This document shows, piece after piece, positions 13,538-57,756 of a DNA stretch of 64,000 nt (position 1 is the first letter of the stretch; each line of letters opens with the position of its first letter). Location: NCBI GenBank assembly GCA_964474085.1, contig CAYYRJ010000003.1, positions 21,348 through 85,347 on the forward strand, written 5' to 3'. A model generated the notes under the pieces. That model searched no databases. It saw only the letters and a list, made by a program, of their open reading frames with translations, and was not told the DNA's origin. Origin of the DNA: an uncultured Planctomycetales bacterium. Its GTDB lineage: Bacteria; Omnitrophota; Gorgyraeia; Zapsychrales; JANLHA01. Position numbers and translations under genes: made by a program.

Positions 13538-13539
13538 AA

Positions 13540-13588
13540 ACACTCACACAGACGTTTTACGGTAACACTCACACAGACGTTTTACGGG
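13540..13588. repeat. direct tandem repeat, 2 x 24 bp (acactcacacagacgttttacgg) separated by 1 nt
   Basis: Read directly from sequence; lies immediately beside U4 in a gene-free 550 bp stretch. Confidence 0.7.
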
Positions 13589-13896: not shown

Positions 13897-13918
13897 CAAG
13901 CGCCGGTGCCGGGTTCGC
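13897..13918. repeat. D-family repeat, copy D4 (GC hairpin module; the GGAACATTTCC-like module sits about 30 bp upstream at about 13850)
   Basis: cgccggtgccgggttcgcc; preceded by ccgaaacatttcccc. Confidence 0.5.
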
Positions 13919-13924
13919 CAGCTT

Positions 13925-14098
13925 TTATTTAAGTGCAAACCGAGTGTTAACGACCAGCATTTTCTTCCATTTGGCGTAAGCTTTTTTATCAAAAGTCTCG
14001 CGCAAATTAAACTTAACGAATTCTAAATAATCATCCATCGAAAGAATCTTTGTACTCGATGCGGCTGTTTTTATAATTGGCAGGTTGAGTTTTTTCAT
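13925..14098 (-). CDS. hypothetical 57 aa protein translationally coupled to the nucleotidyltransferase-fold gene
   Basis: ATG at 14098 overlaps upstream TGA (ATGA); MKKLNLPIIKTAASSTKILSMDDYLEFVKFNLRETFDKKAYAKWKKMLVVNTRFALK. Confidence 0.4.
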   Translation of the reverse strand: MKKLNLPIIKTAASSTKILSMDDYLEFVKFNLRETFDKKAYAKWKKMLVVNTRFALK

Positions 14099-32024: not shown

Positions 32025-32550
32025 CTTTATTGTCTTGTTTTAATTTTGGCCAATGTTCCTCGGCTAAAATATAGCCAACGCAACGGCTGGCGCGGCAATA
32101 GCAACGGTGTTCATCATACCCGTCATACCCGTAGCTGTAATTGTAGGTAATCTCTTCTCCCTTTTTGATGTCGCGCAGCGCAATCGTCCAAATTTTCCCG
32201 CGGATGATTTCTGTTTCGGCATTCGGGTCGCAGGAGTGATTGACATGTCGCGCTGTATTATAGGGAACATTGCCATCGATATCATAGCGTTTGTTAAGGT
32301 CAAAAAGATATACTGCCCCGAGAGTTTGATCTTCTTTATGGCGATGCAATGGAATAAGGGCCCGTTTTTCAGCTTCTGCTTTTGTGATTTTTTCGCCGAC
32401 GTATTCAATGATCCGTGTTCCTTCAGGGATATCTTTTTTTGCGAAAACCCCGCGGCCGTGGATCGCTGAATTTCGGACCGTAATAAAAGGACTGGTTGTT
32501 TTTTGTGGTTTCATATTGGGTAGAATAGCACGCTCGTCAGAGAAATTCAT
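32017..32550 (-). CDS. SET-domain protein (putative protein-lysine N-methyltransferase)
   Basis: HGRGVFA (GxG block), NHSCDPN (SET motif III), ITYNY, and post-SET Cys cluster CYCRASRC; 177 aa. Confidence 0.7.
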   Translation of the reverse strand: MNFSDERAILPNMKPQKTTSPFITVRNSAIHGRGVFAKKDIPEGTRIIEYVGEKITKAEAEKRALIPLHRHKEDQTLGAVYLFDLNKRYDIDGNVPYNTARHVNHSCDPNAETEIIRGKIWTIALRDIKKGEEITYNYSYGYDGYDEHRCYCRASRCVGYILAEEHWPKLKQDNKVA

Positions 32551-32572
32551 TATTTACCTGGAATTTTTAACA

Positions 32573-33580
32573 TCACTTTGCGGATCTATAAGTTTTTTTC
32601 CAATACGCCTCCAAAAAACGACGTTTCTTGACGAGCCACGCCTGATGATCATGGTACCAACGGATAGTTTCGTCAAGGCCTCTTTTAAATTCGACCTTCG
32701 GCGTCCACCCGAGTTTTTCAAGTTTGCTGCAGTCAACGCTATAGCGAAAATCATGGCCAAGCCGATCCTGGACAAATTCAATCAGCGAATGGGGTTTACC
32801 TAAATGATCCAAAATCATTTTGACGGTATTAATATTCTGTTGTTCAAAATAACTTCCGATATTATAAACTTCACCGATTTTTCCCTTGCGCAAGATCGTA
32901 TCGATACCGTTGGCACAGTCACTGACGTGCAGCCATTCGCGGATTTGTGCGCCTTTCCCATAAACGGGGACTTTTGTATTATTCAAAGCTTTCAAAATAA
33001 TGACCGGAATTAACTTTTCCGGATATTGCCAGGGCCCGTAATTATTGGCCGGCCGGACAATGATCGCTGGAAATTTATAAGTATGCAAGGCCGCCTGGAC
33101 TAAAAGTTCTCCAGCAGCTTTTGTTGACGAATAAGGATTTTTGGCTTTGAGCGGATCGGTTTCTTTGAAATAACCGTTTTTGCTCTCGCCATAAATTTCG
33201 TCGGTTGAAATATGGATAAATTTTTTTATTTTAAATTCACGCGAAAGATCAATAAGATTTTGCGTCCCCTGCACATTGGTCTTAATAAATGCTGATGCAT
33301 TTTGTATGCTGCGGTCGACGTGGGTTTCGGCGGCAAAATGAATGACGATTTGCGGCGCTTCTTTTTTAAAAATTGCGTGGAGTTTTTTGTGGTCGCAGAT
33401 ATCAACTTTATAAAACTTGATTTCTTTGCCGACATCTTTAAGCCGCTCTAAATCTCCGGCATATGTCAATTTGTCGACGCCTACCAGAGAATAATTCTTT
33501 TTAACGGACTGACGGACAAACTGGCTGCCGATAAAACCTGCAGCGCCTGTGACTAATATTTTATCGATGGATTTTTGCAT
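32573..33580 (-). CDS. rmlB: dTDP-glucose 4,6-dehydratase
   Basis: ILVTGAAGFIGS Rossmann motif, YSSTKAAGE catalytic YxxxK, 335 aa; adjacent to rmlA. Confidence 0.85.
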   Translation of the reverse strand: MQKSIDKILVTGAAGFIGSQFVRQSVKKNYSLVGVDKLTYAGDLERLKDVGKEIKFYKVDICDHKKLHAIFKKEAPQIVIHFAAETHVDRSIQNASAFIKTNVQGTQNLIDLSREFKIKKFIHISTDEIYGESKNGYFKETDPLKAKNPYSSTKAAGELLVQAALHTYKFPAIIVRPANNYGPWQYPEKLIPVIILKALNNTKVPVYGKGAQIREWLHVSDCANGIDTILRKGKIGEVYNIGSYFEQQNINTVKMILDHLGKPHSLIEFVQDRLGHDFRYSVDCSKLEKLGWTPKVEFKRGLDETIRWYHDHQAWLVKKRRFLEAYWKKTYRSAK

Positions 33581-33598
33581 TATTGAAATGTCCTTTTT

Positions 33599-34465
33599 CT
33601 ATTCACGGGTAGCTATTTTTTTTAGATATGTGCCGTAACTCGTCGGGATTGCATCGGCTAAAACGAGTAATTGTTTTTTGGTAATCCAGCCTTGATTAAA
33701 AGCAACTTCCTCGATGCAGCCGATTTTAAGGCCTTGCCGGTCTTCGATCGTTTTAATAAAAATGGACGCATCCGTCAATGATGTATAGGTCCCGGTGTCA
33801 AGCCAGGCATACCCGCGGTTTAAAACTTTGACGTTGAGCTTTTTATTTTTTAAATAAAGACGGTTGATGTCGGTAATCTCAAGTTCTCCGCGAGCGGACG
33901 GTTTTATTTTTTTGGCGTAGGCGACGACATTGGCATCATAGAAATAAAGGCCTGTCACAGCAAAATTGGATTTTGGTTTTTGGGGTTTTTCTTCGATGGA
34001 TGTCGCCTGAAGATTTTTATTAAACGCGACAACCCCGTATCGCTCTGGGTCCGAAACATTGTACGCAAAAACGCTGGCACCCGTTTTGGTTTTAGCTGCC
34101 TGTTTAAGCAGAACAGTCAACCGGTCACCATAAAAAATATTGTCGCCCAGAATTAAACAAACTGGATCTTGGCCGATAAATTTTTCGCCCACAAGAAAGG
34201 CTTGGGCGATCCCTTGGGGCTTGGGTTGTTCTTTATAGCTAATCTTAAGCCCCAGTTCTTTGCCATCGCCAAAAAGTTTTTCAAATAAAGGCAAATCAGT
34301 TGGCGTTGAAATGATTAGGATCTCCCGAATGCCGGCAAGCATAAGCACGGAAAGAGGATAATAAATCATCGGCTTATCGTAAATTGGTAACAGTTGTTTG
34401 CAAACGCTCTTGGTAATCGGATAAAGCCGTGTCGCTTTTCCACCGGCGAGGATAATGCCTTTCAT
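33599..34465 (-). CDS. rmlA: glucose-1-phosphate thymidylyltransferase
   Basis: [39 protein letters not shown] is the canonical RmlA N-terminus; 288 aa. Confidence 0.85.
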
Positions 34466-34480
34466 AAGGAGTAAACCTTT

Positions 34481-35695
34481 CTAACTGTTGACTAAAACAT
34501 CATTAAGAAAATTTTTGAATATTTCCCCGGGATCAAATTGAACAATCTGTTGCGACAAGTTTTGTGCGGATTGTCGGTACTTATTTTCTGCCAAAAGTTC
34601 ATGAATAGCGGCACTAACAGTATTTTTTGTTGCCAAAGACGGACGGATCAATTTTCCGGCGCCCAATTCTACAATTTGTTCCATGACAAAAAACTGGTCC
34701 ATGTTCGTCGGGAAACCTAAAACAGGAACACCATCTGATAACCCCTGGTAAACTGAGCCACTGCCGCCGTTTGTAATGAATAATTGGGCGACTTTAGCCA
34801 CTTCTAATCCTGAAACATAATCGGTCACAAAAAAGTTTTCAGGCATATTCGCACTACTGGCTCGGCCGGAAGTCGTAAAAATGACCGTGACCTCCATTTT
34901 TTTTAAGACATCCTTAATAAGGGTTAGTATCGAGATGTTCCCGGAAGACCCTAAGGATAAATAAATAAGCGGTTTGTTCTCGGGCCATTTGCCCCACCAC
35001 TCTGGATGTACCATATTTGGTAATTCACAAATTGGTCCCAAGTATTTGTGTGTGTTGGGTAAATTTTCGCTTGGAGCAATTTGCGGTACGTCGGGGTAAA
35101 GTGTCCATGTTCCCTGTGAATACATCTCTTGAATCGTTTTAACAGTTTCTAAGCCGTATTGGCGGCAAATTTTGTTGAAATCTCGATAATGAAGAGAAAA
35201 TCCGATTGGTGAAAAAATGCGGAACAATATCTCGCCGAGTTGAGGTCCGAGTGCTTTTGCGATTGGTAACTCGGGAAACGGACTTTCATTGCGTTTTGAA
35301 AATGGGCTCCAATAGGCGTTAATCAGACACACATAAGGAATTTTCGCAAGACGGCTGGAAATACCCAATGAGATGCGAAAATCTCCAACAATCAGATTAG
35401 GCTTTGTTTTTTCAAAGAGTTCTCGTTCATCGAGAAGATACTGTTCAAGCCGATCATGCGTATAGACAGGTTCGCCGGTGGATAATCTTTTATTAAACTC
35501 TTCCGTTGACATCGACGGCAATTCCACCCAGGGAAATCCTGCATTTTCAATCAGTGCCCGATAACGTTTATCGCATGCAAAGACAATTTCATAATTCTCT
35601 TTATCAAGGCTTTGGGCCAAAAACACAGGCCTAATGATATGCGATAAAGTAACTCCCTCTCCAATAAAAAGAATACGTTTTTTGGGCGAAGTCAT
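34481..35695 (-). CDS. GT1-family glycosyltransferase (UDP/dTDP-sugar glycosyltransferase, MGT/OleD-like)
   Basis: C-terminal nucleotide-sugar binding region ITNGGSGSVYQGLSDGVPVLGFPTNMDQF; 404 aa; start overlaps the stop of the upstream E1-nitroreductase gene. Confidence 0.65.
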   Translation of the reverse strand: MTSPKKRILFIGEGVTLSHIIRPVFLAQSLDKENYEIVFACDKRYRALIENAGFPWVELPSMSTEEFNKRLSTGEPVYTHDRLEQYLLDERELFEKTKPNLIVGDFRISLGISSRLAKIPYVCLINAYWSPFSKRNESPFPELPIAKALGPQLGEILFRIFSPIGFSLHYRDFNKICRQYGLETVKTIQEMYSQGTWTLYPDVPQIAPSENLPNTHKYLGPICELPNMVHPEWWGKWPENKPLIYLSLGSSGNISILTLIKDVLKKMEVTVIFTTSGRASSANMPENFFVTDYVSGLEVAKVAQLFITNGGSGSVYQGLSDGVPVLGFPTNMDQFFVMEQIVELGAGKLIRPSLATKNTVSAAIHELLAENKYRQSAQNLSQQIVQFDPGEIFKNFLNDVLVNS

Positions 35696-37659
35696 GTCGT
35701 CATTAATTCCGATAGTTCTTTTCTTACTGACCGAGGGACAGGTAATGTTGTTGGAGGAATCCCGACTCGTCCCATAAAGGCAATATTGTTAATGGGAACT
35801 ATTTCCCCGAGCTTTAAAGCGAGTGTATCGGCACGTTTTTGCATATTCGAATTTGTCGTAAATGAAATTTTATTTTTGCCGTAATAGGCAAAAGCCACTG
35901 TGGCAACGGCCGGCTGCATCACAAGCCCCAGTTGAGTTAATTGCAGCCAAAATCTTTGCAAAGCTTCGCCCGTCGCTAATAATGTTTGTGTATTGGTAGC
36001 ATCGTTAGGATTTTTCCATTCAATAATGTAATGCGCTGCACAAAAAACTCTGGGCAAGAAATCCATCTCGAGTTGTGGAACAATGGCTCCACCTAAAAAT
36101 TTATTCATAACGTTGACCCGTTGCCAACTTTGAATGCTAAATTCCAGCAATTTCTGTGTCGGCAGCGAAATCCCGGCTGCCTTAATGGGAACTTTATCCG
36201 GACTAAAATCATTTTTAAAATCCATCATGTGCTTGTGGGTTTTGTAGGTTTCTTTGATGCTCAGACGAATCTGCGTTGATAAAGCATTTAAACGGCTTAT
36301 GGCCAGCCGTTGGGAAAAATTTTCAAACCAATGAATTTTAAATTGATTGCCCAAAGAGTTTTCTAATATTGATTTTTGTTTTTGGGTCAAAGGCCGCATC
36401 TTGTAAGGAAAACGGTTGACGGAACGGATTTTTATAAATGGAGCCAACAGGCTTTCTTTGATTAAAGCATCTTTTGTGATTTTAAAATGAACTTTATGCG
36501 TTTTAGGGCCAACCGATTCATACGTGTACTCTGTTCGATAACCCAAAGTTGATGCGGCGATACGAAAAGTTTCGATAAAAAATCCAATGGTCATAATGGA
36601 GGGTTTTCCTGCAAAGTCATAGGTGCTGTCTTCATTGTGAAAATGAAGAATAAATTCAGAGTCGCTGGTGACTTGAAATTGCCACGGTTGCGAGTTGTCT
36701 CCTGACGGTGACCATTTGGCCAGATCGAGGATAATTTCAAGAGTATTTTTAAATATGTGTAAGGAAGTTTTTTCAAAAGAATTAGTTGATGCTAATTTTT
36801 GTAAAAGTCGAGTTGCAAAAGCGATACGAAGTCGCTGGGCTAGATTACGCTTGCCGCCACGAAGGTACCCTTTTTTTAAAATGTTGCGATAGGAGTCAAA
36901 ATTTTGGAACCAGGGTGCAGCAAGAACTTGGCCACGGTTTAAAAGGATTTTTAGCGCTTCGGCTCCGACAACAGCTGCGCAGAGATTACAAGCAATGACT
37001 GTGGAAGGCCCCCGGTTTTCTTCCATATTAACAGCGGCAGGATAAGCCAGATAAAAGCGTTGTCCTGCCGACGGGTTAAGCCCCAAAAGAAATTTGATTT
37101 GATTTTTAAAAGGTGTTTTTGGGTCAAATCCGTAGTATTCGTCAAAACTCATTTTCCCTGGCATAAAAATTTGATAGGAAACACCCATGCCCAGCGGTGC
37201 AGCTGTAATGGCAGGAATATTTAACTGGTGGCAACGCTTAAAAACTTTTTGACGAATATCTAAAACAAAAAAATCAAGTCCATCGACGTAAAGATCGGTA
37301 TCTTTAAGAAAATCGTCAATGTTGGCTTCTGTCACGCCGTTTGTAAATGGGGTGATTTTGATATTAGGGTTAATGTCACACGCTATTTTTGAAAGAGTTT
37401 CAACCTTGGATTTATTTAGTGTACTGACAAAAGCGCCAGCTTGACGGTTAATATTGGCTAATTCAAAATTATCCAGATCGGCAATATGAAAATTTTCAAT
37501 TCCTAGCCGCGCCAAAGTCAAAAGATGGCTCCCCCCTACACCACCTAAGCCGGCAATCGCTATTTTTTTATTACGCAAAATTTGCTGTTCCCAAGCCGTG
37601 ACCCAACCGATATTTCGGCTAAAAGCTTTATCAAAATCAAAAATTTCGTTAGTATTCAT
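35692..37659 (-). CDS. fusion protein: N-terminal E1-like adenylyltransferase (ThiF/MoeB superfamily, TcdA-like) + C-terminal tandem nitroreductase-fold (SagB/McbC-like) domain
   Basis: KIAIAGLGGVGGSHLLTLARLGIENFHIADLDNFELANINRQ (E1 nucleotide-binding), no CxxC zinc motif (TcdA-like); C-terminal SPSGDNSQPWQF and RFPYKMRPLT nitroreductase signatures; 655 aa. Confidence 0.65.
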   Translation of the reverse strand: MNTNEIFDFDKAFSRNIGWVTAWEQQILRNKKIAIAGLGGVGGSHLLTLARLGIENFHIADLDNFELANINRQAGAFVSTLNKSKVETLSKIACDINPNIKITPFTNGVTEANIDDFLKDTDLYVDGLDFFVLDIRQKVFKRCHQLNIPAITAAPLGMGVSYQIFMPGKMSFDEYYGFDPKTPFKNQIKFLLGLNPSAGQRFYLAYPAAVNMEENRGPSTVIACNLCAAVVGAEALKILLNRGQVLAAPWFQNFDSYRNILKKGYLRGGKRNLAQRLRIAFATRLLQKLASTNSFEKTSLHIFKNTLEIILDLAKWSPSGDNSQPWQFQVTSDSEFILHFHNEDSTYDFAGKPSIMTIGFFIETFRIAASTLGYRTEYTYESVGPKTHKVHFKITKDALIKESLLAPFIKIRSVNRFPYKMRPLTQKQKSILENSLGNQFKIHWFENFSQRLAISRLNALSTQIRLSIKETYKTHKHMMDFKNDFSPDKVPIKAAGISLPTQKLLEFSIQSWQRVNVMNKFLGGAIVPQLEMDFLPRVFCAAHYIIEWKNPNDATNTQTLLATGEALQRFWLQLTQLGLVMQPAVATVAFAYYGKNKISFTTNSNMQKRADTLALKLGEIVPINNIAFMGRVGIPPTTLPVPRSVRKELSELMTT

Positions 37660-37916: not shown

Positions 37917-38306
37917 TTAAAATTCCTCGAGCACGGCACCTGTTGAAATTGTATAGCTGTGTTTTCCAGTTGAACTGCTCATCGGCACGGCAGATATAAA
38001 ATAGGAATACGGATCTAAAACGTCCGCCACATAAGTAAACCCGTTTCGCCCTGTTGTAAAATAATCTGAATTCAAATACGGTGGGGTTGCCCCAACGAGT
38101 GATGTTGTATCCTCAGGATATTCATTATTTAATGCGTAGTAATTTTCAAGTGAACTTGATATGGTCCGCAGTGTTGCTTGCGCGGACGATTCGTTGGCTT
38201 GAATTTTAGCTCGGATGAGATTTGGCATAGCAATTGTTGCCAAAAGCGCAATGATGACAACGATAATCAAAATCTCAATGAGGGTAAATCCGTTTTTATT
38301 TTTCAT
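37917..38306 (-). CDS. prepilin-type N-terminal cleavage/methylation domain protein (type IV pilin / pseudopilin)
   Basis: MKNKNGFTLIEILIIVVIIALLATIA: canonical G-FTLIE class III signal peptide. Confidence 0.8.
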   Translation of the reverse strand: MKNKNGFTLIEILIIVVIIALLATIAMPNLIRAKIQANESSAQATLRTISSSLENYYALNNEYPEDTTSLVGATPPYLNSDYFTTGRNGFTYVADVLDPYSYFISAVPMSSSTGKHSYTISTGAVLEEF

Positions 38307-38953
38307 TTTTTATTTCCAAGCAAAGGTTTAATTTTGAAATATTCGCCGGGAGTATATCCGCCATAATTTTTTGTTGGTGTCGGTGGTGGTGTATTTTGTT
38401 CAATCGGGGTATTTGCCGTAGGCGTTGGTGTAACGACTGGGACAGTAACTTGTGGATTTAAAGCGTTTCGGATAGCGTTGATATCGTTGCCAAAAATAAT
38501 TTTTCCTCCAACGCGGGTCATTGGAAGTTGTGCGTTTTGCAAAGTTTTGTAAAAGTCTATTGCGGCTGGTGAACTTTCAACATCATATACCGAAAACTTA
38601 ATTTTATGGACGTCAAGAAGCGTTAGCAGACGCGTACAGTCTTGACAGTCAGATTTAACAAAAACTTCAACAGGAGTATTTAAGTTTTGCGGTGTCGGAA
38701 TCGTACTTAAGTTTTGTGGTTGGGTAGTTTGTTCTGCGTTTTCCGGCACGACAGAGACTGGCTTGTTATTTTCAATTTTTTTGAGTTGTTCTTCAACTTG
38801 GCTTAAATATTGGTCCGGAACTTTATTATAATCGGTGTTTACGATGTGTTTTTTACCATGGATATCTGTGTAGTTGACAAAGGCCGCTTCGCCGGAGGTG
38901 ATAAACGAAACGGACAAGAGAAGAAGTAGCAAAAGCTTATAGCAGGTTTTCAT
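38303..38953 (-). CDS. secreted thioredoxin-fold (glutaredoxin-like CxxC) protein with Pro/Thr-rich C-terminus
   Basis: Signal peptide MKTCYKLLLLLLLSVSFITSGEA; VFVKSDCQDCTRLL CxxC in Grx-like context. Confidence 0.35.
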   Translation of the reverse strand: MKTCYKLLLLLLLSVSFITSGEAAFVNYTDIHGKKHIVNTDYNKVPDQYLSQVEEQLKKIENNKPVSVVPENAEQTTQPQNLSTIPTPQNLNTPVEVFVKSDCQDCTRLLTLLDVHKIKFSVYDVESSPAAIDFYKTLQNAQLPMTRVGGKIIFGNDINAIRNALNPQVTVPVVTPTPTANTPIEQNTPPPTPTKNYGGYTPGEYFKIKPLLGNKK

Positions 38954-47992: not shown

Positions 47993-48505
47993 ATGACAAA
48001 TATAATAAATCCTAAAAAAAATATTCACACCATCAGTTTGCTCGTGGCCAACAAGCCGGGCGTCTTGGTGCGCATTGCCCTGGTGTTTGCACGGCGCAAT
48101 TATAATATTGATTCCTTGGTCGTCTCCCCTTCTTTTAACGCGAAGTTTTCGCGCATGACTATTACCGCTCAAGGCGATCCGCAGACACTCGAACAGATTA
48201 TCAAGCAGGCCAATAAGCTCATTGATGTTATTCACGCCAGTGAACACAATGACACGGATGCTGTGCATAATGAATTGGCTCTGATGAAGATCAAAGTGAC
48301 ACCGGCCAATAAGCCCGTTATCTTAAAACTTCTCAAGAAATTTAACACTTCCGTTATAGATACGACGGGAAATATCCTTATTATTTCTCAGGCTGGCACA
48401 ACCACAGAGCTTGATGAGCTCGAAGCTTCCCTCAAAAAATACCACCTTATCGAAATTGTTCGCACTGGCAAAGTTGCCATGGCTCGCGGCCATGATGAGA
48501 CCTAA
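47993..48505 (+). CDS. ilvN: acetolactate synthase small (regulatory) subunit
   Basis: HTISLLVANKPGVLVRIALVFARRNYNIDSLVV ACT-domain N-terminus typical of IlvN/IlvH; 170 aa. Confidence 0.8.
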   Translation: MTNIINPKKNIHTISLLVANKPGVLVRIALVFARRNYNIDSLVVSPSFNAKFSRMTITAQGDPQTLEQIIKQANKLIDVIHASEHNDTDAVHNELALMKIKVTPANKPVILKLLKKFNTSVIDTTGNILIISQAGTTTELDELEASLKKYHLIEIVRTGKVAMARGHDET

Positions 48506-48509
48506 AGAC

Positions 48510-48660
48510 TTCCTCGTTTGGCGATCTGCTTTGTTGCAGACTTCGGTGCTCGCTTAACATTAAAATTTGTTATGTCAGACGATTTAGGAAGTCCTTTTTA
48601 AGGCGAATAGCGTCATAGAGACGCCAAACAGTTGAGCCGAAAAAGGACTTCCTAAATTGT
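48510..48660. repeat. about 150 bp structured intergenic element between convergent ilvN and the 136 aa gene; contains a perfect 15 bp inverted repeat (taggaagtccttttt / aaaaaggacttccta) with nested hairpins
   Basis: Arms at 48585-48599 and 48641-48655; inner hairpin ggcg-aatagcgtcatagaga-cgcc; alternative pairing cgtttggcg (48516) with cgccaaacag (48620). Confidence 0.5.
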
Positions 48661-48691
48661 CTAAACTTCATACTGCGTTTTTTATTATTTT

Positions 48692-49102
48692 TTATCGCTT
48701 AAGATTGCAGGGCAGGATTTGTGGCATTTCCTTAGGGGGCAGGACAATTTCGGCGATTTCAATACCGGCTTCATTCTCAGTAATGGAAGTAATTTGACAG
48801 CGCTCAAAATCAATCCCTTCCCTTGCCTGTCCTAAATACTGGACAATCGCCGCGCGCAGCGCATCGAATTCCAAATACAGAATAAATTTTGACTCTTCAT
48901 CGGTAAGTTTAAGATCCGCAAGCAGACTAAGGTAGGAAATTTCGAGGATTTGATCCAGGGTTTTGCCTTTTAAATATTTGCAAAATTCTGTTTCGGCTGC
49001 AATCTCACGCCCGCAGGTGATTTTTGCAAACTCAAAAGAGACAAACCTCTCCTGATGGTCAAGTTTTATAAAAATACTAGAAGAGGAATCATTGCAAGGC
49101 AT
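48692..49102 (-). CDS. hypothetical 136 aa cytoplasmic protein, last gene of the OMT-E1-nitroreductase operon
   Basis: No signal peptide or recognisable motif; 8 nt downstream of the nitroreductase-like gene. Confidence 0.35.
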   Translation of the reverse strand: MPCNDSSSSIFIKLDHQERFVSFEFAKITCGREIAAETEFCKYLKGKTLDQILEISYLSLLADLKLTDEESKFILYLEFDALRAAIVQYLGQAREGIDFERCQITSITENEAGIEIAEIVLPPKEMPQILPCNLKR

Positions 49103-49109
49103 GGGTATT

Positions 49110-50177
49110 CTAAAAAGTATTTTGGCTTTTGGATAAAAGCAGTTGCGAAACAGAATGACGTTTGGATCGGCATGAAAGTGGGTGGATCGGATAACCCAAA
49201 CGCAAAAATATTCCTGGTTTATAGATGTCAGTTTGTAATTTTAGGAACTTTTGATAAACATCGTTAACAAGATTTTGATGCGGTAGGCTATACACATCAG
49301 GCGTTAAATGACAATCAAATGAAATCAACGAGTGCCCAAATGGTTGGCAGGATAAGCCTCTTTGTGTAATCTCAAGCCATATTTCTTGTAGGCATCTTCC
49401 AAGATCAAACCAAGACCAGTTATTGTATGTGCTCGTCGATATATAGATAAGTCCGCTTGAATTTTCAAGAAGCCGCTTACATCCTAAATATGTAAAAATA
49501 CGTTCAACGCCAATCCAGAAAATAAATCGCAAAAACGGAAATATCGTCAGCGCCCGGAGTGTGACTTCTCCAACCCAGGGTATCTCAAGACTATTGGCAG
49601 CGACCCCGGCATTATTACCGTCTTTGTTAAAGTGTAAGGCGCGCATAAAATGTTGATAATGATATTCATTTTGGTAACGAATCACATCGAGTCTTGAAAT
49701 AAGAGTGGCGATATCAGAAAAATCAGATGTGAATAAATTTAGATTTAAGTCTTTATATTTTTGCACAATTTTCTTTATGGGGTCTAAATCACTTTCCGTT
49801 AACGATTTTTTTTGAAAAATTCCCCGTCGGGTCTGTCGCTTGCATATCAATGATGCCCAAGGTGTTTTGTCGACGAACGACGACTTTGTCAGTACTACTG
49901 AAAAGCCGTTGTCTTCTATGGGGAGAATCGTGTCAAGATCGTATCCATCGCTGCGAGCAATAGAAGTAAGGTTTTGGCAAAAGCAGCCCAAGGCGAAGGT
50001 GTTTAGAGCAATGTCCAGTTTTCGTGCGCTATGGAATTTGGGATTGATTGCTAAACGGAACGTGATTTTTGAATGGGTCTGGATTTCCCAGTCGATGGTC
50101 CAAGGCTGAAGATTATCAGCAGACGGTGCCCAGCGTGCGATTTCTAACCAGTTTATAATGAGCTTGCTAGACGGCAA
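49110..50177 (-). CDS. double nitroreductase-fold (SagB/McbC-like dehydrogenase-like) protein
   Basis: N-terminal WAPSADNLQPW and CKRQTRRGIF nitroreductase signatures; 355 aa (about 2x a single nitroreductase domain); paralogous to the C-terminal half of the 35692-37659 fusion. Confidence 0.55.
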   Translation of the reverse strand: MPSSKLIINWLEIARWAPSADNLQPWTIDWEIQTHSKITFRLAINPKFHSARKLDIALNTFALGCFCQNLTSIARSDGYDLDTILPIEDNGFSVVLTKSSFVDKTPWASLICKRQTRRGIFQKKSLTESDLDPIKKIVQKYKDLNLNLFTSDFSDIATLISRLDVIRYQNEYHYQHFMRALHFNKDGNNAGVAANSLEIPWVGEVTLRALTIFPFLRFIFWIGVERIFTYLGCKRLLENSSGLIYISTSTYNNWSWFDLGRCLQEIWLEITQRGLSCQPFGHSLISFDCHLTPDVYSLPHQNLVNDVYQKFLKLQTDIYKPGIFLRLGYPIHPLSCRSKRHSVSQLLLSKSQNTF

Positions 50178-50185
50178 CGAACACC

Positions 50186-51073
50186 TTATTTCGTTTTATT
50201 GTACGCAGTTAAAGCCAGTTGACGTTTTAGCTGTTGAAGTGGATTGCGATTGCCCCAAAGGAGAAATTTTCGCGCTATTCTTCTTTGTGCAGCGTCAAAT
50301 TGAAAATACCGAGGGGCGAGGAATGGTTTTCCTCTCTTTGTCAGAATTTGCATTGCTTCAATGCACGCTACTCCCGCGCAAAGCTCAATGGCAGGCGCTA
50401 ATGAGGGCCCTTGTTTTTTTTCAAAATCAACATACTTCATATCAATTTGTCCGATGTGCAAAAGCGCCGGACAGGTTCCAATTATAAAAGCAACAATTTC
50501 CTCTTGGGAAGTTTTGCAATTTTTAAAATCAAAATAGTCTTCATAGCTCATAGAACCTGGTCCAAAAACATGAAGTGTGGTTGTTAAACCAATTGGGCCT
50601 GATGCAACAGCATAAATTCTTTTAGCGTGGCAGGCGTTGTGCAATGCTCTGCGTGGCGAAATTGCAAAAGCGTCGATCCCATCCATTGCCAGATCGACAG
50701 AATCAAGAAATTCATCTAAGTTTTTTTCATTGATTCCTTCATCAAATGTTTTTATTTGAGCAAAAGGATTAATGTCGCGGATCATTTCAGCAATAACATC
50801 CGTCTTGGGTCGATTCAAATTTGAAATGCTGGCTCCTCTTTGCCGATTAAAGTTTACGGGTTCAAAACGATCAAGATCTGCCAAGTGAAAGTGGCCTACA
50901 CCCATTCGTGCTAAAGTTAACGCATGGGCTCCTCCGACTCCGCCGAGACCAGCGATAGCCACACGTGATCGGCCAAGAATTTCCTGTTCGTGCTCAGAAA
51001 GAATCCCTAAATTTCTGGAGAATAGGTTCTGATAAGTTGCTTGAACCTTGGAATTAGAAAAGTTATCGGTCAT
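50186..51073 (-). CDS. E1-like adenylyltransferase, ThiF/MoeB superfamily (TcdA/CsdL-like, no CxxC zinc motif)
   Basis: RVAIAGLGGVGGAHALTLARMGVGHFHLADLDRFEPVNFNRQ; DGIDAF...ASGPIG pattern resembles TcdA-type E1; paralogous to the N-terminus of the fusion protein. Confidence 0.6.
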   Translation of the reverse strand: MTDNFSNSKVQATYQNLFSRNLGILSEHEQEILGRSRVAIAGLGGVGGAHALTLARMGVGHFHLADLDRFEPVNFNRQRGASISNLNRPKTDVIAEMIRDINPFAQIKTFDEGINEKNLDEFLDSVDLAMDGIDAFAISPRRALHNACHAKRIYAVASGPIGLTTTLHVFGPGSMSYEDYFDFKNCKTSQEEIVAFIIGTCPALLHIGQIDMKYVDFEKKQGPSLAPAIELCAGVACIEAMQILTKRGKPFLAPRYFQFDAAQRRIARKFLLWGNRNPLQQLKRQLALTAYNKTK

Positions 51074-52137
51074 TACTTGATTCCAACAATGATGCCGTGA
51101 TCAAAGCCAAGTTCATATTTTTTAACACTGCTAAAGCCAGCTTCAAGGATCCACTCTTGGTATTCGTTCCATGTATAGAGCATACCAAGTCCTGTTGCAA
51201 TGCTTAAGAAATACGGGGAGCCTATGGCTGCGCTCAAAGGTCCTGTTTCATCGTTATTTTGCATCATATTGAAAATAATCACTTGTCCGCCGCGCGGAAG
51301 GGCTGAAAAACATTTTTTGAGCAGCTCACTATCTTTTTCTTTGCCCCAAATCGTAAAAAAGTGGCAAAACATGATTGCGGAAGCATCTTGCGGAAATGGA
51401 TCATTAAAACAATTTCCCGCTACGGCAAAGACCCGGTCGGACATGCCATTTTGCCGAATGTTTTCTTTTGCGATTTCACAGACAGACGGAGAATCAAAAA
51501 CTGTTGCATGCAAGTGCGGCCATTTCTTTGCAATTGCCATGGCATTTGTCCCATTGCCTCCTCCAACATCAACCAAATGCTTTACTTTGGATAGATCTAG
51601 CCGATCTTTTAATTGGGAATTTGCATAAACGGAAATTTCTTCCATCGCCTCTTGAAAAATCTTTTCGGTTTCAGGATCGTAAGCCAGTCTTTGATAAAGC
51701 GTTGGCTCAGTGCCTTTAAACTCACGAAGACCGACATTCGTATTTTGTTGAACAGACTCGAGTAACCAATAAACTCCCTTGTACATCACCCGATGCTGAA
51801 GCTCAACATAGGCAGTGATTTTATAAGGACTCGATTTAAGCAAGAATAAACTGGCAAAATAAGTAATCGAATAGCGATTAGCAGATTTTTTAAGAAAACC
51901 ACAAGAACAAAGGCCTAATAAAATTATCCGAATAGGCTGTTCCTGAAGTTTTAACTTTTCAGCAATCTCTTTTAGAGTTAAGGGGCCTTCTGTGTGCAGG
52001 AGATTAAAAATATTTAACTGGATTGCCGTGCGAAGAGTTTGAAACAAAATATGGCCGCCAAAAACAAGAGCTCCGCGTTCAAAATCTTTTCGTAAAACAA
52101 TTTTTGTGATCACATATTTCAATAATTTTTTTAACAT
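51073..52137 (-). CDS. class I SAM-dependent O-methyltransferase (Methyltransf_2 / COMT-like with N-terminal dimerisation domain)
   Basis: VDVGGGNGTNAMAIAKKWPHLHATVFDSP SAM-binding motif I and downstream blocks typical of plant/bacterial small-molecule O-MTases; 354 aa; stop overlaps E1 gene start. Confidence 0.65.
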   Translation of the reverse strand: MLKKLLKYVITKIVLRKDFERGALVFGGHILFQTLRTAIQLNIFNLLHTEGPLTLKEIAEKLKLQEQPIRIILLGLCSCGFLKKSANRYSITYFASLFLLKSSPYKITAYVELQHRVMYKGVYWLLESVQQNTNVGLREFKGTEPTLYQRLAYDPETEKIFQEAMEEISVYANSQLKDRLDLSKVKHLVDVGGGNGTNAMAIAKKWPHLHATVFDSPSVCEIAKENIRQNGMSDRVFAVAGNCFNDPFPQDASAIMFCHFFTIWGKEKDSELLKKCFSALPRGGQVIIFNMMQNNDETGPLSAAIGSPYFLSIATGLGMLYTWNEYQEWILEAGFSSVKKYELGFDHGIIVGIK

Positions 52138-52281
52138 AATCTTCTTCCTTTATTTGGTTGTAGAATTTAAATATTAAGCCACTTTATATTGATTATTTAA
52201 GAATCAATATACAAAGCAAGCATAACATTAAATTTAAAGAAGACCTTTAGAATTATTAAAAATATTTAAAACTTGGAAGTT

Positions 52282-53343
52282 TTACCATTCCAGCGCGCCG
52301 CCGGTTTGATACTCGGTTACGCGGGTTTCAAAAAAGTTCTTCTCTTTTTTAAGGTCAATGACTTCGCTCATCCACGGAAATGGATTTTCGCTGCCATATT
52401 GTTCCGGCAGACCAAGGCGGCTAAAACGCCGGTCGGCGATATATTGAACATATTCCTTAAGAAGAGCAGGATTTAAACCTAAAATGCCGTCTTTAACGCA
52501 GTCTTCACAGTAGCGGTGTTCGAGTTCGACGGCATTTTTAATAAACGTAATGATCTCACCTTCAAATGCCTTGTCCCAGACATTGGGATTTTCTTCGCGG
52601 ATGGTGTTGATCAGGTCAATTCCAAAATTCATGTGAATGCTTTCGTCTCGCAAAATATACTGGATTTGTTCGCAGGTCCCCGGAATGCGGTTCTGCCGTC
52701 CAAAGGAAAGCATCGTCACAAACCCGCCATAAAAGAAAATGCCTTCGGTGATAACGTAAAGGCCCACCATGTTTTTAAGCAGGGTTTGTAAACCTTCTTT
52801 TGTGTGCGTGTCAAGGTTGGGATCAAGAACACTGTTTGTGCAACTCATCGCATATTGGTCCTTATCAAAGATTGTTTCGACTTCGCGGTACATATTAAAC
52901 ATTTCACCCTCGTCGAGAGAAAGCGACTGCACGATATACTGAAAAGCGTGAATGTGAATGGCCTCTTCAAAGGCTTGCCGCAGCAAATATTGGCGGCATT
53001 CGGGATTATCGACACAGCGATAAACCGCCAAAACCAGATTGTTTCCGACGAGTGACTCGGCAGTTGCAAAAAATCCAAGCACGCGCTTAATGACTCGCCG
53101 TTCGCTGTCAGTAAACCCTTTGGGGTCTTTCCATTGTTCAATATCGCGCTGCATCGAGACTTCGGTTGGCATCCAGTGATTGGCACAGCCGTCGAGATAA
53201 TAGTTCCAGGCAAAACGGTATTTTATTGGGACAAGTTGGTTGCAATCGACGGTGCGGTCATTGTTAATAACTCTTTTTCTTTCAACAGTCATTCTTTCTT
53301 TGCTCATTGAAATGCTTAAATCGGACATAATCTTTTTCCTCAA
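52282..53343 (-). CDS. nrdB: ribonucleotide reductase class I beta (R2) subunit
   Basis: Ferritin-like diiron ligands in AESLVGNNL...EEAIHIHAF...[11 protein letters not shown]...RDESIHMNF. Confidence 0.85.
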
Positions 53344-53349
53344 AAAATT

Positions 53350-53550
53350 TTAAAGTTTGGATTTGTTTTTAGCCTTGGGTGCGGTGACGCCAAAAAGATT
53401 ATCTTGACAGCGACGGTTGATTTCCCGTTCGATGCCGCGGACAGAATAACGAAAAACACCTAACATCGCCCGCAACTGTTCGATATCAAGTTTTTGGAGT
53501 TCTTCGTCTTTGATATTTAATAATTTTTTTAAAGATTTTAGTTCAATCAT
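53350..53550 (-). CDS. small hypothetical protein between nrdA and nrdB
   Basis: 66 aa ORF, charged/helical, no family recognised. Confidence 0.25.
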   Translation of the reverse strand: MIELKSLKKLLNIKDEELQKLDIEQLRAMLGVFRYSVRGIEREINRRCQDNLFGVTAPKAKNKSKL

Positions 53551-53693
53551 AGATGTTCTCCGAGATTTTCGTCCCTGCTGATTCCCTTAGCTAAACGATT
53601 TATGTTGACCGCCTCGTCTGACGATAGCTTCCTCCCTGCTAATTCTCTCGCAGGATGCTCGAGAATTAATGCGCAGGGACTTCGGCTTGCCTT

Positions 53694-56600
53694 CTATTGG
53701 CAAGCCTCGCAATCTTCTTTGGGTTCAACGCTCAACGAAGGCGTTGCGGCTTTGAGTGTTTGGGTTGCTTCTACCGCGGGGGTATTTGCAACAGGGATTT
53801 CACCGATTTTTCCTTGTTCATCGCGCTGCCGTTTTCCGACGATGTTTCCGCTGTATTTAGCGTTAGTGATATCAAGCGTGCTTTTTTCAATTCGCGTTGC
53901 GCCCATGGACCGCAGATAATAGGTTGTTTTTAATCCCTTTTCCCAAGCAAACATATACATATCGCTGACCTTTTGTCCATTAGGTTTGGCTTGATAGAGA
54001 TTAAGTGATTGACCCATGTCGATCCATTTTTGCCGGCGGCTGGCGGCTTCAATGACCCATTCATATTCGACTTCAAAAGCGGTTGCATATTTTTGTTTTA
54101 ATTCGACCGGGATGCGTTCAATCTCTTGAATGCTGCCGTCAAAGTATTTAAGGTCGTCGATCATTTCTTTGTCCCAAAGTTTGAGTTTTTTAAGATCGTT
54201 GACTAAAAACTCGTTAACGACCGTAAACTCGCCGGAGAGATTGCTTTTAACAAAGATGTTTTTGTAGAGCGGTTCAACCGAGGATGTTACGCCAATGATA
54301 TTGGCAATCGTTGCCGTCGGCGCAATGGCCATGGTATTGCTGTTTCGCATGCCAAATTTTTTGACAGACTCGCGAAGGGTTTTCCAATCCATGCGGCTCG
54401 TGCGGTCCACTTTTAAGAAACCACCACGTTCTTTTTCTAAAAGATCGAGTGTGTCTAACGGCAACAAACCGCGATCCCACTTAGAACCTTTATACGTAGA
54501 ATATTGTCCACGTTCTTTTGCTAACTCCATGGAACCGAGAATGGCATAGTAAGAAATCGCTTCCATACTATAATCGCTAAACTCAACAGCCGCTGTGGAA
54601 GCGTAGCTTAAGTTTTGTATCCAAAGCGCATCTTGAAAACCCATAATCCCCATCCCGATTGGACGATGGCGCTGATTGGCGGCTTTTGCCTCGACGGTTG
54701 GATAATAATTAATGTCAATCACATTGTCGAGCATGCGAACAGCGGTTGCAATGGTCTCTTTGAGCTTAGGTAAATCTAACCCTTGCGCTGTGGTGTGTGC
54801 CGCAAGATTAATCGATCCTAAGTTGCAGACGGCCGTTTCTTCTTTAGAAGTATTCAAAAGAATTTCTGTGCAAAGGTTTGAGCTGTGCACAACACCGACG
54901 TGATCCTGCGGAGAACGGATATTTGACGGATCTTTCCATGTCATCCAGGGATGGCCGGTTTCAAAAAGCATGTTAAGCATTTTGCGCCATAGCGCGATCG
55001 CGGGCATTTCTTTATAAAGTTTTAACTGGCCGCTTCGCCCTAACCGTTCATATTCCTGATAACGTTTTTCGAATGCACTGCCGCAAAGATGATGCAAATC
55101 CGGCGTTTCACTTGGGCTAAACAAAGACCAATTGGCATTGGCTTTGACTCGTTTCATAAAAAGATCTGGAATCCAGTTGGCGGTATGCATATCGTGCGTC
55201 CGACGACGATCATCGCCGGTGTTTTTGCGCAATTCGAGAAATTCTTCGATATCATGGTGCCAAACTTCTAGATAGGCGCACATAGCCCCTTGTCGTTTTC
55301 CACCCTGATTGACGGCAATCGCTGTATCGTTGGCAACTTTTAAGAAAGGAATAACCCCCTGACTTTTGCCATTGGTCCCTTTAATGCGGGCGCCCATGGA
55401 ACGGACATTTGTCCAGTCATTGCCCAGTCCCCCGCTCCATTTGGAAAGCATCGCATCGTCCTGAATGCATTTAAAGATATGGTGAAGATCATCCTCTACG
55501 GTCGTCAAAAAGCAGGATGATAATTGCGCATGCAAAGTCCCGGAGTTAAACAAAGTCGGCGTTGAAGAAACAAACCGGAAAGAAGAAAGGATGTTATAAA
55601 ATTCAATGGCGCGTTCATTTTTTTGGCTGCCTTCTAATTGAGCCAGTCCCATGGCAACACGCATCCAAAAGATTTGCGGTAATTCTAAACGTTGTCCGTC
55701 GCTGTGAATAAAGTAACGGTCATAAAGCGTTTGCAATCCCATATAGCGAAACAGAAAATCCCGCTTAGGTTGAATGGCATTTCCCAAAACGGTCAGGTCA
55801 AATTCTAAAAGCGCAGGACTTAACAGCTCCAGCTCAACGGCTTTTTGAATAAATTTCTTAAAATAAACCGGATATTCGGTCTTGATTTTTTCGAAGCTCA
55901 AATCTTTTTCTAAAGTTTCGCGGTAAATTTTAAGCAGCAGAAGCCGTGCTGCCGCATAGGCATAATTCGGTTCGACTTCCAAAAAAGACTTTGCCGCCAT
56001 AATATTGGCGATTGTCATTTTTTCGTCGGTGATCCCGTTATAATAATTTTTGACAGCTTCAAAAAGGATTTTGTTTGTCGAAACGTTTTCCAATCCCTGG
56101 CAGCAGGTATCGATGGTAAAATGGCATTCATCGATATTAAAGGGGCGTTCTTTACCGTCGGCGCTTTTGACATTGATTTTTTTGACCCATTCGAAAGTTA
56201 CGCCCAAGTCGCCTAATTTATCCTGTCGGGCTTTAGCGCGTTCTTCACGATAGAGAATATAGCGTTTGGCCACGTCGTGAAGGTTAAATTTCATCAGTGA
56301 TTTTTCAACCAAGTCTTGGATTTCTTCAATATGCAAGGCTTTGCCGTTGGGCCATTGGCGGTGAATTTCACTGAGGACTTCGGCGGCAATTTCACGGGAT
56401 TGTTTTAAAAGCGCACCGGTCAAATGGGTATTGTGATGCGCCGCCAAAGCTTTTGAAACTGCGGCAGCGATTTTTTCGGGTTTAAAGGAAACGCTGCGGC
56501 CGTCGCGCTTGATCGTCGAGTAAATATCTAAACTGGCGCGTTTGGCAGCGCGTTCTTTGCGGTAATTGGTGTAGATTTCGGCGACTTCTTTGTAGCCGTT

Positions 56601-56876
56601 TTCGTAAAGCTGGCGAATCGCATCATCCTGAATTTCTTCAACGTTGACCGATTCCTGGGTATTAAATTTTTCGTGCAAAACCGAAAAAACGCTTGCGCTC
56701 ACCTTTTCGACATCTTCTAAAACAAGCTCAGGAAGCTGGGCTTCGCGTGGAAGATGATGATACTGCTTAAATGCGTTGGCGATGGCATTCGTAATCCGGT
56801 CCGGATTGAAAGCAACGAGTTGGCCGGTACGTTTTTGAACTTTTCGGTCTAAGTTGATGAGTTTGTCTTTGGACAT
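53694..56876 (-). CDS. nrdA: ribonucleoside-diphosphate reductase class I alpha subunit with three N-terminal ATP-cone domains
   Basis: 1060 aa. Three ATP-cone-like blocks (VQKRTGQLVAFNPDRITNAIANAF; IKRDGRSVSFKPEKIAAAVSKAL; VKSADGKERPFNIDECHFTIDTC). Catalytic core with NLCTEI, and a C-terminal CEAC tail. Confidence 0.85.
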   Translation of the reverse strand: MSKDKLINLDRKVQKRTGQLVAFNPDRITNAIANAFKQYHHLPREAQLPELVLEDVEKVSASVFSVLHEKFNTQESVNVEEIQDDAIRQLYENGYKEVAEIYTNYRKERAAKRASLDIYSTIKRDGRSVSFKPEKIAAAVSKALAAHHNTHLTGALLKQSREIAAEVLSEIHRQWPNGKALHIEEIQDLVEKSLMKFNLHDVAKRYILYREERAKARQDKLGDLGVTFEWVKKINVKSADGKERPFNIDECHFTIDTCCQGLENVSTNKILFEAVKNYYNGITDEKMTIANIMAAKSFLEVEPNYAYAAARLLLLKIYRETLEKDLSFEKIKTEYPVYFKKFIQKAVELELLSPALLEFDLTVLGNAIQPKRDFLFRYMGLQTLYDRYFIHSDGQRLELPQIFWMRVAMGLAQLEGSQKNERAIEFYNILSSFRFVSSTPTLFNSGTLHAQLSSCFLTTVEDDLHHIFKCIQDDAMLSKWSGGLGNDWTNVRSMGARIKGTNGKSQGVIPFLKVANDTAIAVNQGGKRQGAMCAYLEVWHHDIEEFLELRKNTGDDRRRTHDMHTANWIPDLFMKRVKANANWSLFSPSETPDLHHLCGSAFEKRYQEYERLGRSGQLKLYKEMPAIALWRKMLNMLFETGHPWMTWKDPSNIRSPQDHVGVVHSSNLCTEILLNTSKEETAVCNLGSINLAAHTTAQGLDLPKLKETIATAVRMLDNVIDINYYPTVEAKAANQRHRPIGMGIMGFQDALWIQNLSYASTAAVEFSDYSMEAISYYAILGSMELAKERGQYSTYKGSKWDRGLLPLDTLDLLEKERGGFLKVDRTSRMDWKTLRESVKKFGMRNSNTMAIAPTATIANIIGVTSSVEPLYKNIFVKSNLSGEFTVVNEFLVNDLKKLKLWDKEMIDDLKYFDGSIQEIERIPVELKQKYATAFEVEYEWVIEAASRRQKWIDMGQSLNLYQAKPNGQKVSDMYMFAWEKGLKTTYYLRSMGATRIEKSTLDITNAKYSGNIVGKRQRDEQGKIGEIPVANTPAVEATQTLKAATPSLSVEPKEDCEACQ

Positions 56877-57027
56877 TTTGCGCGTCCTCCTTAATTAAAG
56901 CTACAGAGCGATGATTATAAAATATTTTACCGTTTTAGAGACAAAGAATCCTTATAGATTTAAAGCAAAAACATTAGTTTTAGGGTTGATCGAGACCAGA
57001 TGTGTTGCAAACGTTTTCATGAGGAGA

Positions 57028-57080
57028 ACAGCACTATATATGGAAATATTATCAATGACAACCGCTAGATATAGTATATT
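57028..57080. promoter_or_regulatory. two NrdR-box-like palindromes upstream of nrdA
   Basis: acaGCACTATATATgg (57028-57043) resembles the NrdR box consensus acaCTATATATAGtgt; second weaker AT-palindrome ctagatatagtatatt (57065-57080). Confidence 0.3.
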
Positions 57081-57135
57081 AAGCAAGCGCTTTGTCAACG
57101 TAATTTTTAAAAAATACGTCTAAATTTTTGATCAA

Positions 57136-57756
57136 TCACTTTACGGCGATGTAATTTTTGTTAACGGCATCCCAGTCGATGATGTTCCAGAATGCGGCAA
57201 TGTAATCCGGCCGGCGATTTTGATAATTAAGATAATAGGCATGTTCCCAGACATCGAGTCCAAAAACCGGTTTGCCTTTTAATTCAGAAACATCCATAAG
57301 CGGATTATCCTGATTTGGTGTTGAGCCGATGACAAGTTTGCCGCCGCTGACAACTAACCACGCCCAGCCGCTGCCAAAACGGGTCGTTGCGGCTTGGCCG
57401 AATTTTTCTTTAAAGGCGTCAAAGCTCCCAAAGTCACGGTCAATGGCTAAAGCTAATTCGCCGGTCGGTTTTCCGCCGCCTTTGGCGCTTAAAATTTTCC
57501 AAAACATCGCATGGTTCCAATGCCCGCCGCCATTATTGCGGACTGCACTGCGAATCGCCTCGGGAATGTCAGCGATTTTGCTAATCAACTGTTCGACCGT
57601 TTTGCTTTCAAGCTCGCTCTTGCCTTCTAAAGCTTTGTTGAGATTATTGACATATGCCGCGTGGTGTTTGCCGTGATGAATTTCCATTGTTTTGGCGTCT
57701 ATGTGCGGTTCGAGCGCATTGGTTGCATACGCTAAAGCGGGTAATGAAAAAGACAT
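57136..57756 (-). CDS. Fe/Mn superoxide dismutase
   Basis: [36 protein letters not shown] and DVWEHAYYL metal-ligand blocks; 206 aa. Confidence 0.9.

Follow-up and report, generated by a model that had tools for sequence, protein, structure and literature searches.

A horizontally acquired methyltransferase-ThiF-nitroreductase cassette in an uncultured PVC-group bacterium, a probable tailoring unit for methylated oxazolone-type lipids

Why should genes for a methyltransferase, a ThiF/E1-like adenylating enzyme and a flavoprotein of the nitroreductase type lie packed together between the housekeeping genes nrdAB and ilvBN of an uncultured PVC-group bacterium, and what might they make? The question is raised by a 64-kb stretch of contig CAYYRJ010000003.1 (the window, meaning the whole stretch, on which all coordinates are counted), in which the three genes occupy positions 49110-52137 of the minus strand. 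The answer favored here, with moderate confidence, is that they form a horizontally inserted tailoring unit making methylated oxazolone or N-acyl-dehydro-amino-acid lipids; it is built on the gene content of the locus, the folds and catalytic residues of the proteins, the insertion, the recurrence of the module in other genomes, its linkage in relatives to genes for N-acyl amino acid synthases (NAS), and purifying selection. The system as such is already known, namely the oxazolone/N-acyl-dehydro-amino-acid pathway, met with here together with a methylating tailoring enzyme; the locus extends current understanding and does not overturn it.

The first gene of the cassette (51073..52137, minus strand as are all genes of the locus) encodes an S-adenosylmethionine (SAM)-dependent methyltransferase (MT) of 354 aa with matches to PF00891 (2e-32) and PF08100. 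It overlaps by one base the gene for the E1-like enzyme (E1; 50186..51073, 295 aa, PF00899 at 5e-46), a predicted cyclase of the type of TyzB and of the N-terminal domain of OxzB. The third gene (49110..50177, 355 aa) starts with TTG 8 nt past the E1 stop and encodes an Acg-type, putatively flavin-dependent oxidase (FDO) with the fold of nitroreductases (NTR), a predicted Cα/Cβ desaturase of TyzC type. Seven nt past its stop begins a gene for a 136 aa protein of IscU fold (48692..49102; NifU_N at 3.5e-5), which lies outside the cassette. The nrdAB genes are found upstream on the same strand, and ilvBN converges on the locus from the other side. Domains were called from Pfam and NCBIfam, and folds from AlphaFold (AF2) models searched with Foldseek. 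In a preliminary description of this DNA, four minus-strand reading frames with overlapping or abutting ends had been placed between ilvBN and nrdAB, and reading frames, coordinates and flanks are all as described there; the four genes had also been taken as one unit, which does not hold, as synteny gives three genes and a pre-existing fourth.

The trio is recognized as an insertion by comparison with related genomes, whose loci carry L-numbers. In five relatives (L002, L004, L005/L006, L007 and L174) the position of the IscU-like gene is free of the trio; the usual order there is nrdB followed by the IscU-like gene, convergent with ilvNB. In one of these a reverse-strand gene with a PEP-CTERM domain intervenes upstream of the IscU-like gene, and in L174 the latter directly follows AhpC-SOD, nrdAB being absent; in L009 the ilvNB side of the gene is visible and the contig ends 57 bp upstream. 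The closest trio-less relative is L007, whose IscU-like protein is 93% identical to that of the window; there, 54 bp separate the nrdB stop from the IscU-like start, compared with about 3.18 kb in the window, and in the alignment of the two, homology breaks exactly at 52282 (the nrdB stop) and resumes at 49102 (the IscU-like start). Because the IscU-like gene has the same position without the trio in these relatives, the trio is an insertion of about 3.2 kb between nrdB and the IscU-like gene; MT-E1-NTR is thus a horizontally acquired three-gene insertion in that spacer. The nearest relative of the window carrying the cassette is L010 (labeled Planctomycetales, 84% identity), which is more distant than L007 and has the trio at the identical site. 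The GC content at third codon positions (GC3) is 0.33-0.40 in the cassette genes versus 0.47-0.51 in the flanking housekeeping genes. Neither direct repeats, inverted repeats nor mobile-element genes were found flanking the insertion in the window.

Both the window and L010 have all three cassette reading frames intact despite synonymous divergence (dS) of 0.5-1.5, and the ratios of nonsynonymous to synonymous divergence (dN/dS) between these gene pairs are 0.04 for MT, 0.09 for E1 and 0.17 for NTR; the three genes are under purifying selection. In the same comparison (L010, positions 1-2765), dS amounts to 1.46 for MT and 1.18 for E1, and to 0.43-0.54 for NTR, the IscU-like gene, ilvN and ilvB; the two- to threefold higher values of MT and E1 may stem from replacement of one part of the cassette by recombination or from differing codon constraints.

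Control of the cassette may reside in the AT-rich 144-bp spacer that extends from the nrdB stop to the MT start (52138..52281, minus strand), which forms the upstream junction of the insertion and is a candidate promoter or operator region; a palindrome of 13+13 nt within it (52185-52211) could be the operator. Scans for promoters and terminators gave counts not above those of shuffled sequence and are uninformative on operon structure, and Rfam at E<=1 over 48300-57400 returned two sub-threshold chance matches and no riboswitch or known RNA. Today the IscU-like gene probably shares a transcript with the cassette. A terminator-like inverted repeat of 23 nt (48577..48662; arms 96% complementary, 40 nt between them) lies in the interval on which the IscU-like and ilvN genes converge, and a hairpin is also present in the 54-bp, ancestral nrdB-IscU-like spacer of L007.

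What, then, is the fourth gene? The 136 aa protein had been called an orphan, a term which does not suit it, since more than 340 homologs of 57-99% identity exist, some of them labeled Omnitrophica, and its fold is IscU-like: of the AF2 model (pLDDT 83) the top 26 Foldseek matches are all IscU (probability 0.82-1.0), and ISCU structures in the PDB are matched at E of about 2e-4. The first two Cys motifs align with those of IscU/NifU_N (PCND with ACGD, TCG with GCG), whereas the protein lacks the third canonical Cys and an N-terminal region of about 35 residues; a C-terminal extension of about 45 residues, not found in IscU, bears two further invariant cysteines, and the score in the IscU family model is 24 bits (cut-off 192). 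Within the family C30, C102 and C131 are invariant (C131 appearing as C132 in tool numbering) and C3 is nearly so. It had been proposed to inspect the structure for a carrier or an RRE-like, leader-binding fold; neither a beta-grasp (ubiquitin-like carrier) nor an RRE fold is seen in the model, and the C-terminus (LPCNLKR) is not a Gly-Gly-type tail. The trio also occurs without this gene (L011, L013, L024, L077, L101, L103, L104, L176 and L177), just as the gene occurs without the trio in the five relatives above; the 136 aa gene is a conserved housekeeping gene which predates the trio and is unrelated to the cassette.

The proteins of this family have a truncated IscU fold with a beta-hairpin as C-terminal extension, and may be variant Fe-S or metal-binding proteins. 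The gene (in the window, L002, L004, L005, L007, L009 and L174) always faces ilvNB convergently and follows an AhpC-SOD-(nrdAB) block, and genes of Fe-S and redox functions (Mrp/ApbC, Grx, BolA, gshAB) are plentiful around it. A role as partner of ribonucleotide reductase, analogous to YfaE or NrdI, was considered and dropped, as L174 has the gene without nrdAB.

The enzymes to which E1 and NTR are best compared are those that make oxazolones. In Pseudoalteromonas rubra, tyrazolones and phenazolones are the joint products of the fused ThiF-nitroreductase OxzB and the N-acyltransferase OxzA (bioRxiv 10.1101/2020.06.11.147165). Mycobacterium tuberculosis has a split pair, the ATP-dependent cyclase TyzB (ThiF) and the flavin-dependent oxidase and desaturase TyzC, which act on N-acyl-Tyr made by TyzA (PMC10404671), and in addition the fusion TrzS (Rv1355c), which with its partner TrzA makes tryptazolones, cyclization preceding desaturation; the closest structural homolog of TrzS is Acg (PMC12856293). 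The pairing of a ThiF protein with an FDO as oxazolone cyclase and desaturase has thus been shown experimentally (PMC10404671, PMC12856293, bioRxiv 10.1101/2020.06.11.147165). Like these systems, the window has a ThiF-like cyclase with an Acg-type oxidase, and has them both split (50186-51073 and 49110-50177) and fused (35692-37659); unlike OxzAB, TyzACB and TrzAS, neither copy is accompanied by an N-acyltransferase gene, their neighbors being the MT gene (split copy) or genes for a glycosyltransferase (GT) and dTDP-sugar synthesis (fused copy). With 79 and 74 bits versus a cut-off of 476 in the NCBIfam model of the Rv1355c family, the window copies are not TrzS orthologs.

The split E1 scores 354 bits in NCBIfam PRK08223 (cut-off 266) and shares 47% identity with the ThiF domain in the OxzB-type fusion of Nitrosospira multiformis, a species listed among those with OxzB homologs by de Rond et al. 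(bioRxiv 10.1101/2020.06.11.147165), and 44-50% with the E1s of classical NAS-linked loci. Invariant residues are R20, the GLGGVGG stretch at 42-48, D66/D68, N74-R77-Q78 (NxNRQ), K90 and D131, the last aligning with the conserved Asp of TcdA, MoeB and ThiF; the nucleotide-binding residues and those required for adenylation are thereby intact. The earlier label "TcdA-like" is justified at the level of the superfamily but not beyond, as the protein lies far below the cut-off of the TcdA equivalog in NCBIfam (67.9 versus 304 bits) and the match to TcdA in the PDB spans the Rossmann half only. NTR is harder to place: it has a weak Nitroreductase match and aligns with the Acg family of NCBIfam as well as with PRK14851 and the Rv1355c family, in these two over their C-terminal halves, and as a sequence-only search of the PDB failed (Acg at E=0.18), structure prediction was needed. 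The AF2 model (pLDDT 82.6) has as its best fold 2YMV, an Acg homologue and monomeric double nitroreductase, matched over the full length (E=1.9e-12, TM-score 0.65-0.70), and so the double nitroreductase fold that had been proposed for 49110-50177 is borne out by the predicted structure. A word-indexed search of 5.8 billion proteins yielded only 7 close homologs, and in a metagenome scan based on the NTR alignment most matches were distant FDOs of 21-26% identity, only L094 and L121 being moderately close; to OxzB-type FDO domains identity is 21-23% (23% for N. multiformis).

The fused protein of the window (35692..37659, minus strand, 655 aa, an OxzB-type homolog) aligns with that of N. multiformis (Nl7) over its full length, with 42% identity over 680 aligned positions. 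The split E1 is 38-40% identical to its N-terminal half (E=9e-70 at 40%) and the split NTR 21% identical to its C-terminal half over 365 collinear residues (E=2e-8); the paralogy that had been surmised is therefore real but old. Derivation of the split from the fused copy by recent duplication or fission was rejected on the grounds of the 38% identity and of a nearest-neighbor analysis, in which each E1 of the window has closer kin in other organisms than its partner in the genome. The two copies are therefore separate, old lineages of one family. The split state of NTR and E1 is genuine, because it is maintained with differing junctions in L010, L011 and L013.

MT, too, has a telling relative. 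Its best PDB match is SibL (4QVG), aligned over the full length at E=3e-59 and about 33% identity, a C-methyltransferase acting on the ring of 3-hydroxykynurenine (PMC4426599). The SAM-binding residues of SibL are conserved in MT, and when active-site residues were projected on nine module-linked homologs, the Tyr134/Tyr295 clamp (Y148 and Y309 of MT), Phe296 and His335 were kept in all nine; the positions of the catalytic His and Asp of O-methyltransferases are Thr and Ile in all nine (T262/I263). MT had been described as an O-methyltransferase, which is right as to the Pfam family name (Methyltransf_2 plus Dimerisation) but not as to the active site, which resembles that of the C-methyltransferase SibL. 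C- rather than O-methylation is, by this analogy, more likely. MT is not a SibL ortholog: Tyr99 of SibL is replaced by Leu or Trp, Tyr288 by Ser, Gly or Thr, and Asp292 by Gly in the MT homologs, and since these are residues for the amine and the amino-acid tail, the substrate is not 3-hydroxykynurenine and probably not a free amino acid. The family is large, with 626 homologs at E<=1e-40, and its annotations vary (UbiE, O-methyltransferase, "L-tyrosine C(3)-methyltransferase").

The three genes travel as a unit in other genomes. Relatives of E1 were collected by scanning species-representative genomes with the E1 alignment, at least 398 being found, and neighborhoods were counted in the best 80 of these loci. 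E1 and NTR are fused in 22 of them, and in about 40 the E1 is split with an NTR homolog detected nearby. Eleven independent loci besides the insertion site of the window bear MT, in three gene orders. MT-E1-NTR is found in the window, L010, L011 and L013, whose E1s form a tight clade, L011 and L013 being in unrelated contexts; NTR-MT-E1 in L024, L077, L103, L104 and L119; NTR-E1-MT in L101, L176 (Methylomarinovum) and L177 (Nitrosomonas). Homologs of the window GT are encoded near E1 in 15 of the 80 loci. The preliminary description had seen in the E1+NTR pair, fused or split and with varying tailoring enzymes, a modular biosynthetic unit, and had suggested a co-occurrence analysis of ThiF-nitroreductase-methyltransferase neighborhoods; the core of that reading is supported by these counts.

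A NAS is encoded within 6 kb of E1 in 55 of the 80 loci, 33 with the TIGR03694-type (exosortase-associated) and 26 with the FeeM-type enzyme. Five MT-bearing modules have a NAS gene beside them or near; in four of them the adjoining gene is of the FeeM type (PF21926), as became visible when a conserved neighbor of 280 aa was searched with Pfam. An apparent mutual exclusion of MT and NAS (Fisher p=0.058 with the TIGR03694-type only) was dropped after these FeeM-type genes had been found beside MT modules. Two of the homologous cassettes have companions consistent with mobility: in L024 (Desulfobacter, 2932-9272) NTR-MT-E1 stands between two DDE transposase genes, and in L176 (9134-10321) the MT gene directly adjoins one for a group II intron reverse transcriptase. 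In Proteobacteria (L015-L093, L176, L177) the E1, NTR and NAS genes are commonly within PEP-CTERM/exosortase loci (for example L176 1483-12000, L177 9193-14649), where PrsT-like TPR lipoproteins, EpsH, PEP-CTERM proteins, chain-length determinants and acyl-CoA ligases are also encoded; lipids of the oxazolone type may thus be connected with exosortase systems.

The closest precedent for the complete trio comes from planctomycetes. A stieleriacine cluster of Stieleria neptunia, predicted in 2025, has consecutive genes for a methyltransferase, a ThiF protein and a nitroreductase adjoining NasY, and in S. maiorica the same three lie inside one longer region; that organism makes ring-C-methylated N-acyl-dehydrotyrosines, and the methyltransferase of its cluster falls into one group with a tyrosine C3-methyltransferase (PMC12479983). 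What the Stieleria methyltransferase, ThiF protein and nitroreductase do is itself predicted, and one to four NasY genes are nearby (PMC12479983). The described gene order is that of the window, L010, L011 and L013, with methyltransferase, ThiF and NTR genes in a row, and the grouping of the S. maiorica enzyme fits the SibL-like active site of the window MT; unlike the Stieleria clusters, the window locus has no NAS of the NasY type.

By homology to the oxazolone pathways, substrate, product, order of steps and mode of methylation may be proposed as follows. E1 would activate an N-acyl aromatic amino acid by ATP-dependent adenylation of its carboxylate, whereupon the amide oxygen would close the ring to give an oxazolone; the Acg-type flavoenzyme, with flavin mononucleotide and O2, would then put in a Cα/Cβ double bond, yielding a 4-arylidene-oxazolone, which would readily hydrolyze to the N-acyl-2,3-dehydro amino acid. 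The SibL-like MT would methylate the aromatic ring system, more likely at a carbon ortho to the phenol than at the oxygen, at some stage of the pathway; hydrolysis and methylation together would lead to a methylated N-acyl-dehydro amino acid, mirroring the stieleriacines of planctomycetes. The N-acyl amino acid would be supplied by a NAS encoded outside the window, or from another pool of acylamino acids.

Several points weigh against this scheme, the most serious being that the defining partner of the known pathway is missing in cis. Hidden Markov models of the TIGR03694-type and FeeM-type NAS detected none in six-frame translations of the whole 64-kb window (best E>0.3), and no NAS is present in the examined flanks of L010, L011, L013, L024, L101 and L177; as neither copy in the window has a NAS beside it, the enzyme is encoded elsewhere, or the substrate differs. 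Further, none of the family's MT-bearing modules has a known product, and with the SibL residues replaced that hold the ring amine (Tyr99) and the tail of the amino acid (Tyr288, Asp292), the sequence does not define the substrate of MT. The split NTR belongs to a highly divergent subfamily whose substrate could be a different one, and the sequence link to the oxazolone synthetases runs through the fused N. multiformis protein, from a species named in the table of de Rond et al.

These points may be read to mean that the NAS-less cassette acts on another class of substrate, such as the C-terminal residue of a peptide, an N-acetyl or N-succinyl amino acid or another aryl acid, and yields something other than a fatty-acyl oxazolone. 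The six NAS-less MT-bearing loci in addition to the window, the rare and divergent subfamily of trio-type NTRs, the lost tail-binding residues of MT and the transposon-flanked cassette of L024, which stands alone, all fit such a view; but five MT-bearing modules do have NAS genes, the identity of E1 to enzymes of NAS-linked loci is substantial (44-50%), no conserved small open reading frame or peptide-like gene was found to accompany the trio, and planctomycete pathways are reported to be frequently unclustered (PMC12479983). A different substrate class is considered unlikely, if by some way the most serious challenge to a fatty-acyl product; somewhat less likely again is the more specific version of it, a portable unit which would turn a non-fatty-acyl substrate (for example a peptide C-terminus or other acylamino acid) into a new C-methylated azlactone or dehydro-amino acid. 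The missing NAS, together with the deviating GC3 of the cassette and the transposases or reverse transcriptase beside its homologs, might instead indicate a decaying, functionless remnant of horizontal transfer that has lost its partner; this is quite improbable, as the three frames have stayed intact at dS 0.5-1.5 with dN/dS 0.04-0.17 and the catalytic residues are conserved. In other systems the C-termini of proteins or peptides are acted on by E1-like enzymes (PMC12596934), which, with the gap of 7 nt after NTR and no predicted terminator in it (co-transcription is likely), would allow a four-gene operon for E1-driven modification of proteins or peptides, with the 136 aa product serving as its carrier, as leader-binding partner or as substrate. 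Such an operon is largely refuted by synteny, the 136 aa gene being in place in five trio-less relatives (in one with a 93% identical product) and nine loci having the trio without it; with the IscU-like fold, which is neither beta-grasp nor RRE, and a C-terminus without a Gly-Gly-type ending, it must be regarded as highly improbable.

A tailoring unit for methylated oxazolone-type lipids would matter for several reasons. Oxazolones and N-acyl-dehydro-aromatic amino acids are a class of bacterial lipids or signals recognized in 2021-2025, so far in Proteobacteria, Actinomycetota and two planctomycetes, and here the cyclase/desaturase core is present twice, independently, in an uncultured bacterium of the PVC group. 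As a compact cassette, the core travels together with a conserved SibL-like MT, the family of which is widespread and usually mis-annotated as UbiE or O-methyltransferase, and the existence of cassettes without a clustered acyltransferase bears on rules for genome mining that start from NAS. Should the portable unit with its non-fatty-acyl substrate be real, the several hundred MT homologs would stand for a large family of signals, methylated oxazolones connected with PEP-CTERM/exosortase loci.

The fused copy is part of a second, independently derived module of the same kind. Downstream of it on the minus strand follow genes for a GT of the GT1/MGT family (34481-35695), an RmlA-like (33599-34465) and an RmlB-like protein (32573-33580), a row (32573..35695) which makes this the glycosylating variant of the module; an association of GT with oxazolone genes is mentioned in passing by de Rond et al. 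(bioRxiv 10.1101/2020.06.11.147165). The fused gene heads a long minus-strand gene row (27818-37659), in which genes for a SET-domain protein (32017-32550), a DUF3108 protein, a 614 aa protein without family match and a trypsin-like protease with TPR repeats are also found. Upstream of the fusion are pilin-like and small open reading frames; immediately upstream is one of 129 aa (37917-38306) with a type IV pilin-like N-terminus (GFTLIEILIVV), preceded by a gene for a secreted protein with a glutaredoxin domain (38303-38953).

Two other regions of the window stand out. A stretch of low GC content (0.34-0.40) at 8548-14634 looks like a small toxin or defense island and encodes a zeta-toxin-like protein, a RhuM/Fic-domain protein, a nucleotidyltransferase of the NTP_transf_5 type and a 207 aa protein without family match. 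At 23665-27627 a protein of 1320 aa is encoded which has only a weak NosD-like (beta-helix) match; after it come three paralogs of about 580-665 aa (18171-23629), unassigned in their N-terminal parts, the C-terminal thirds of which consist of TPR repeats.

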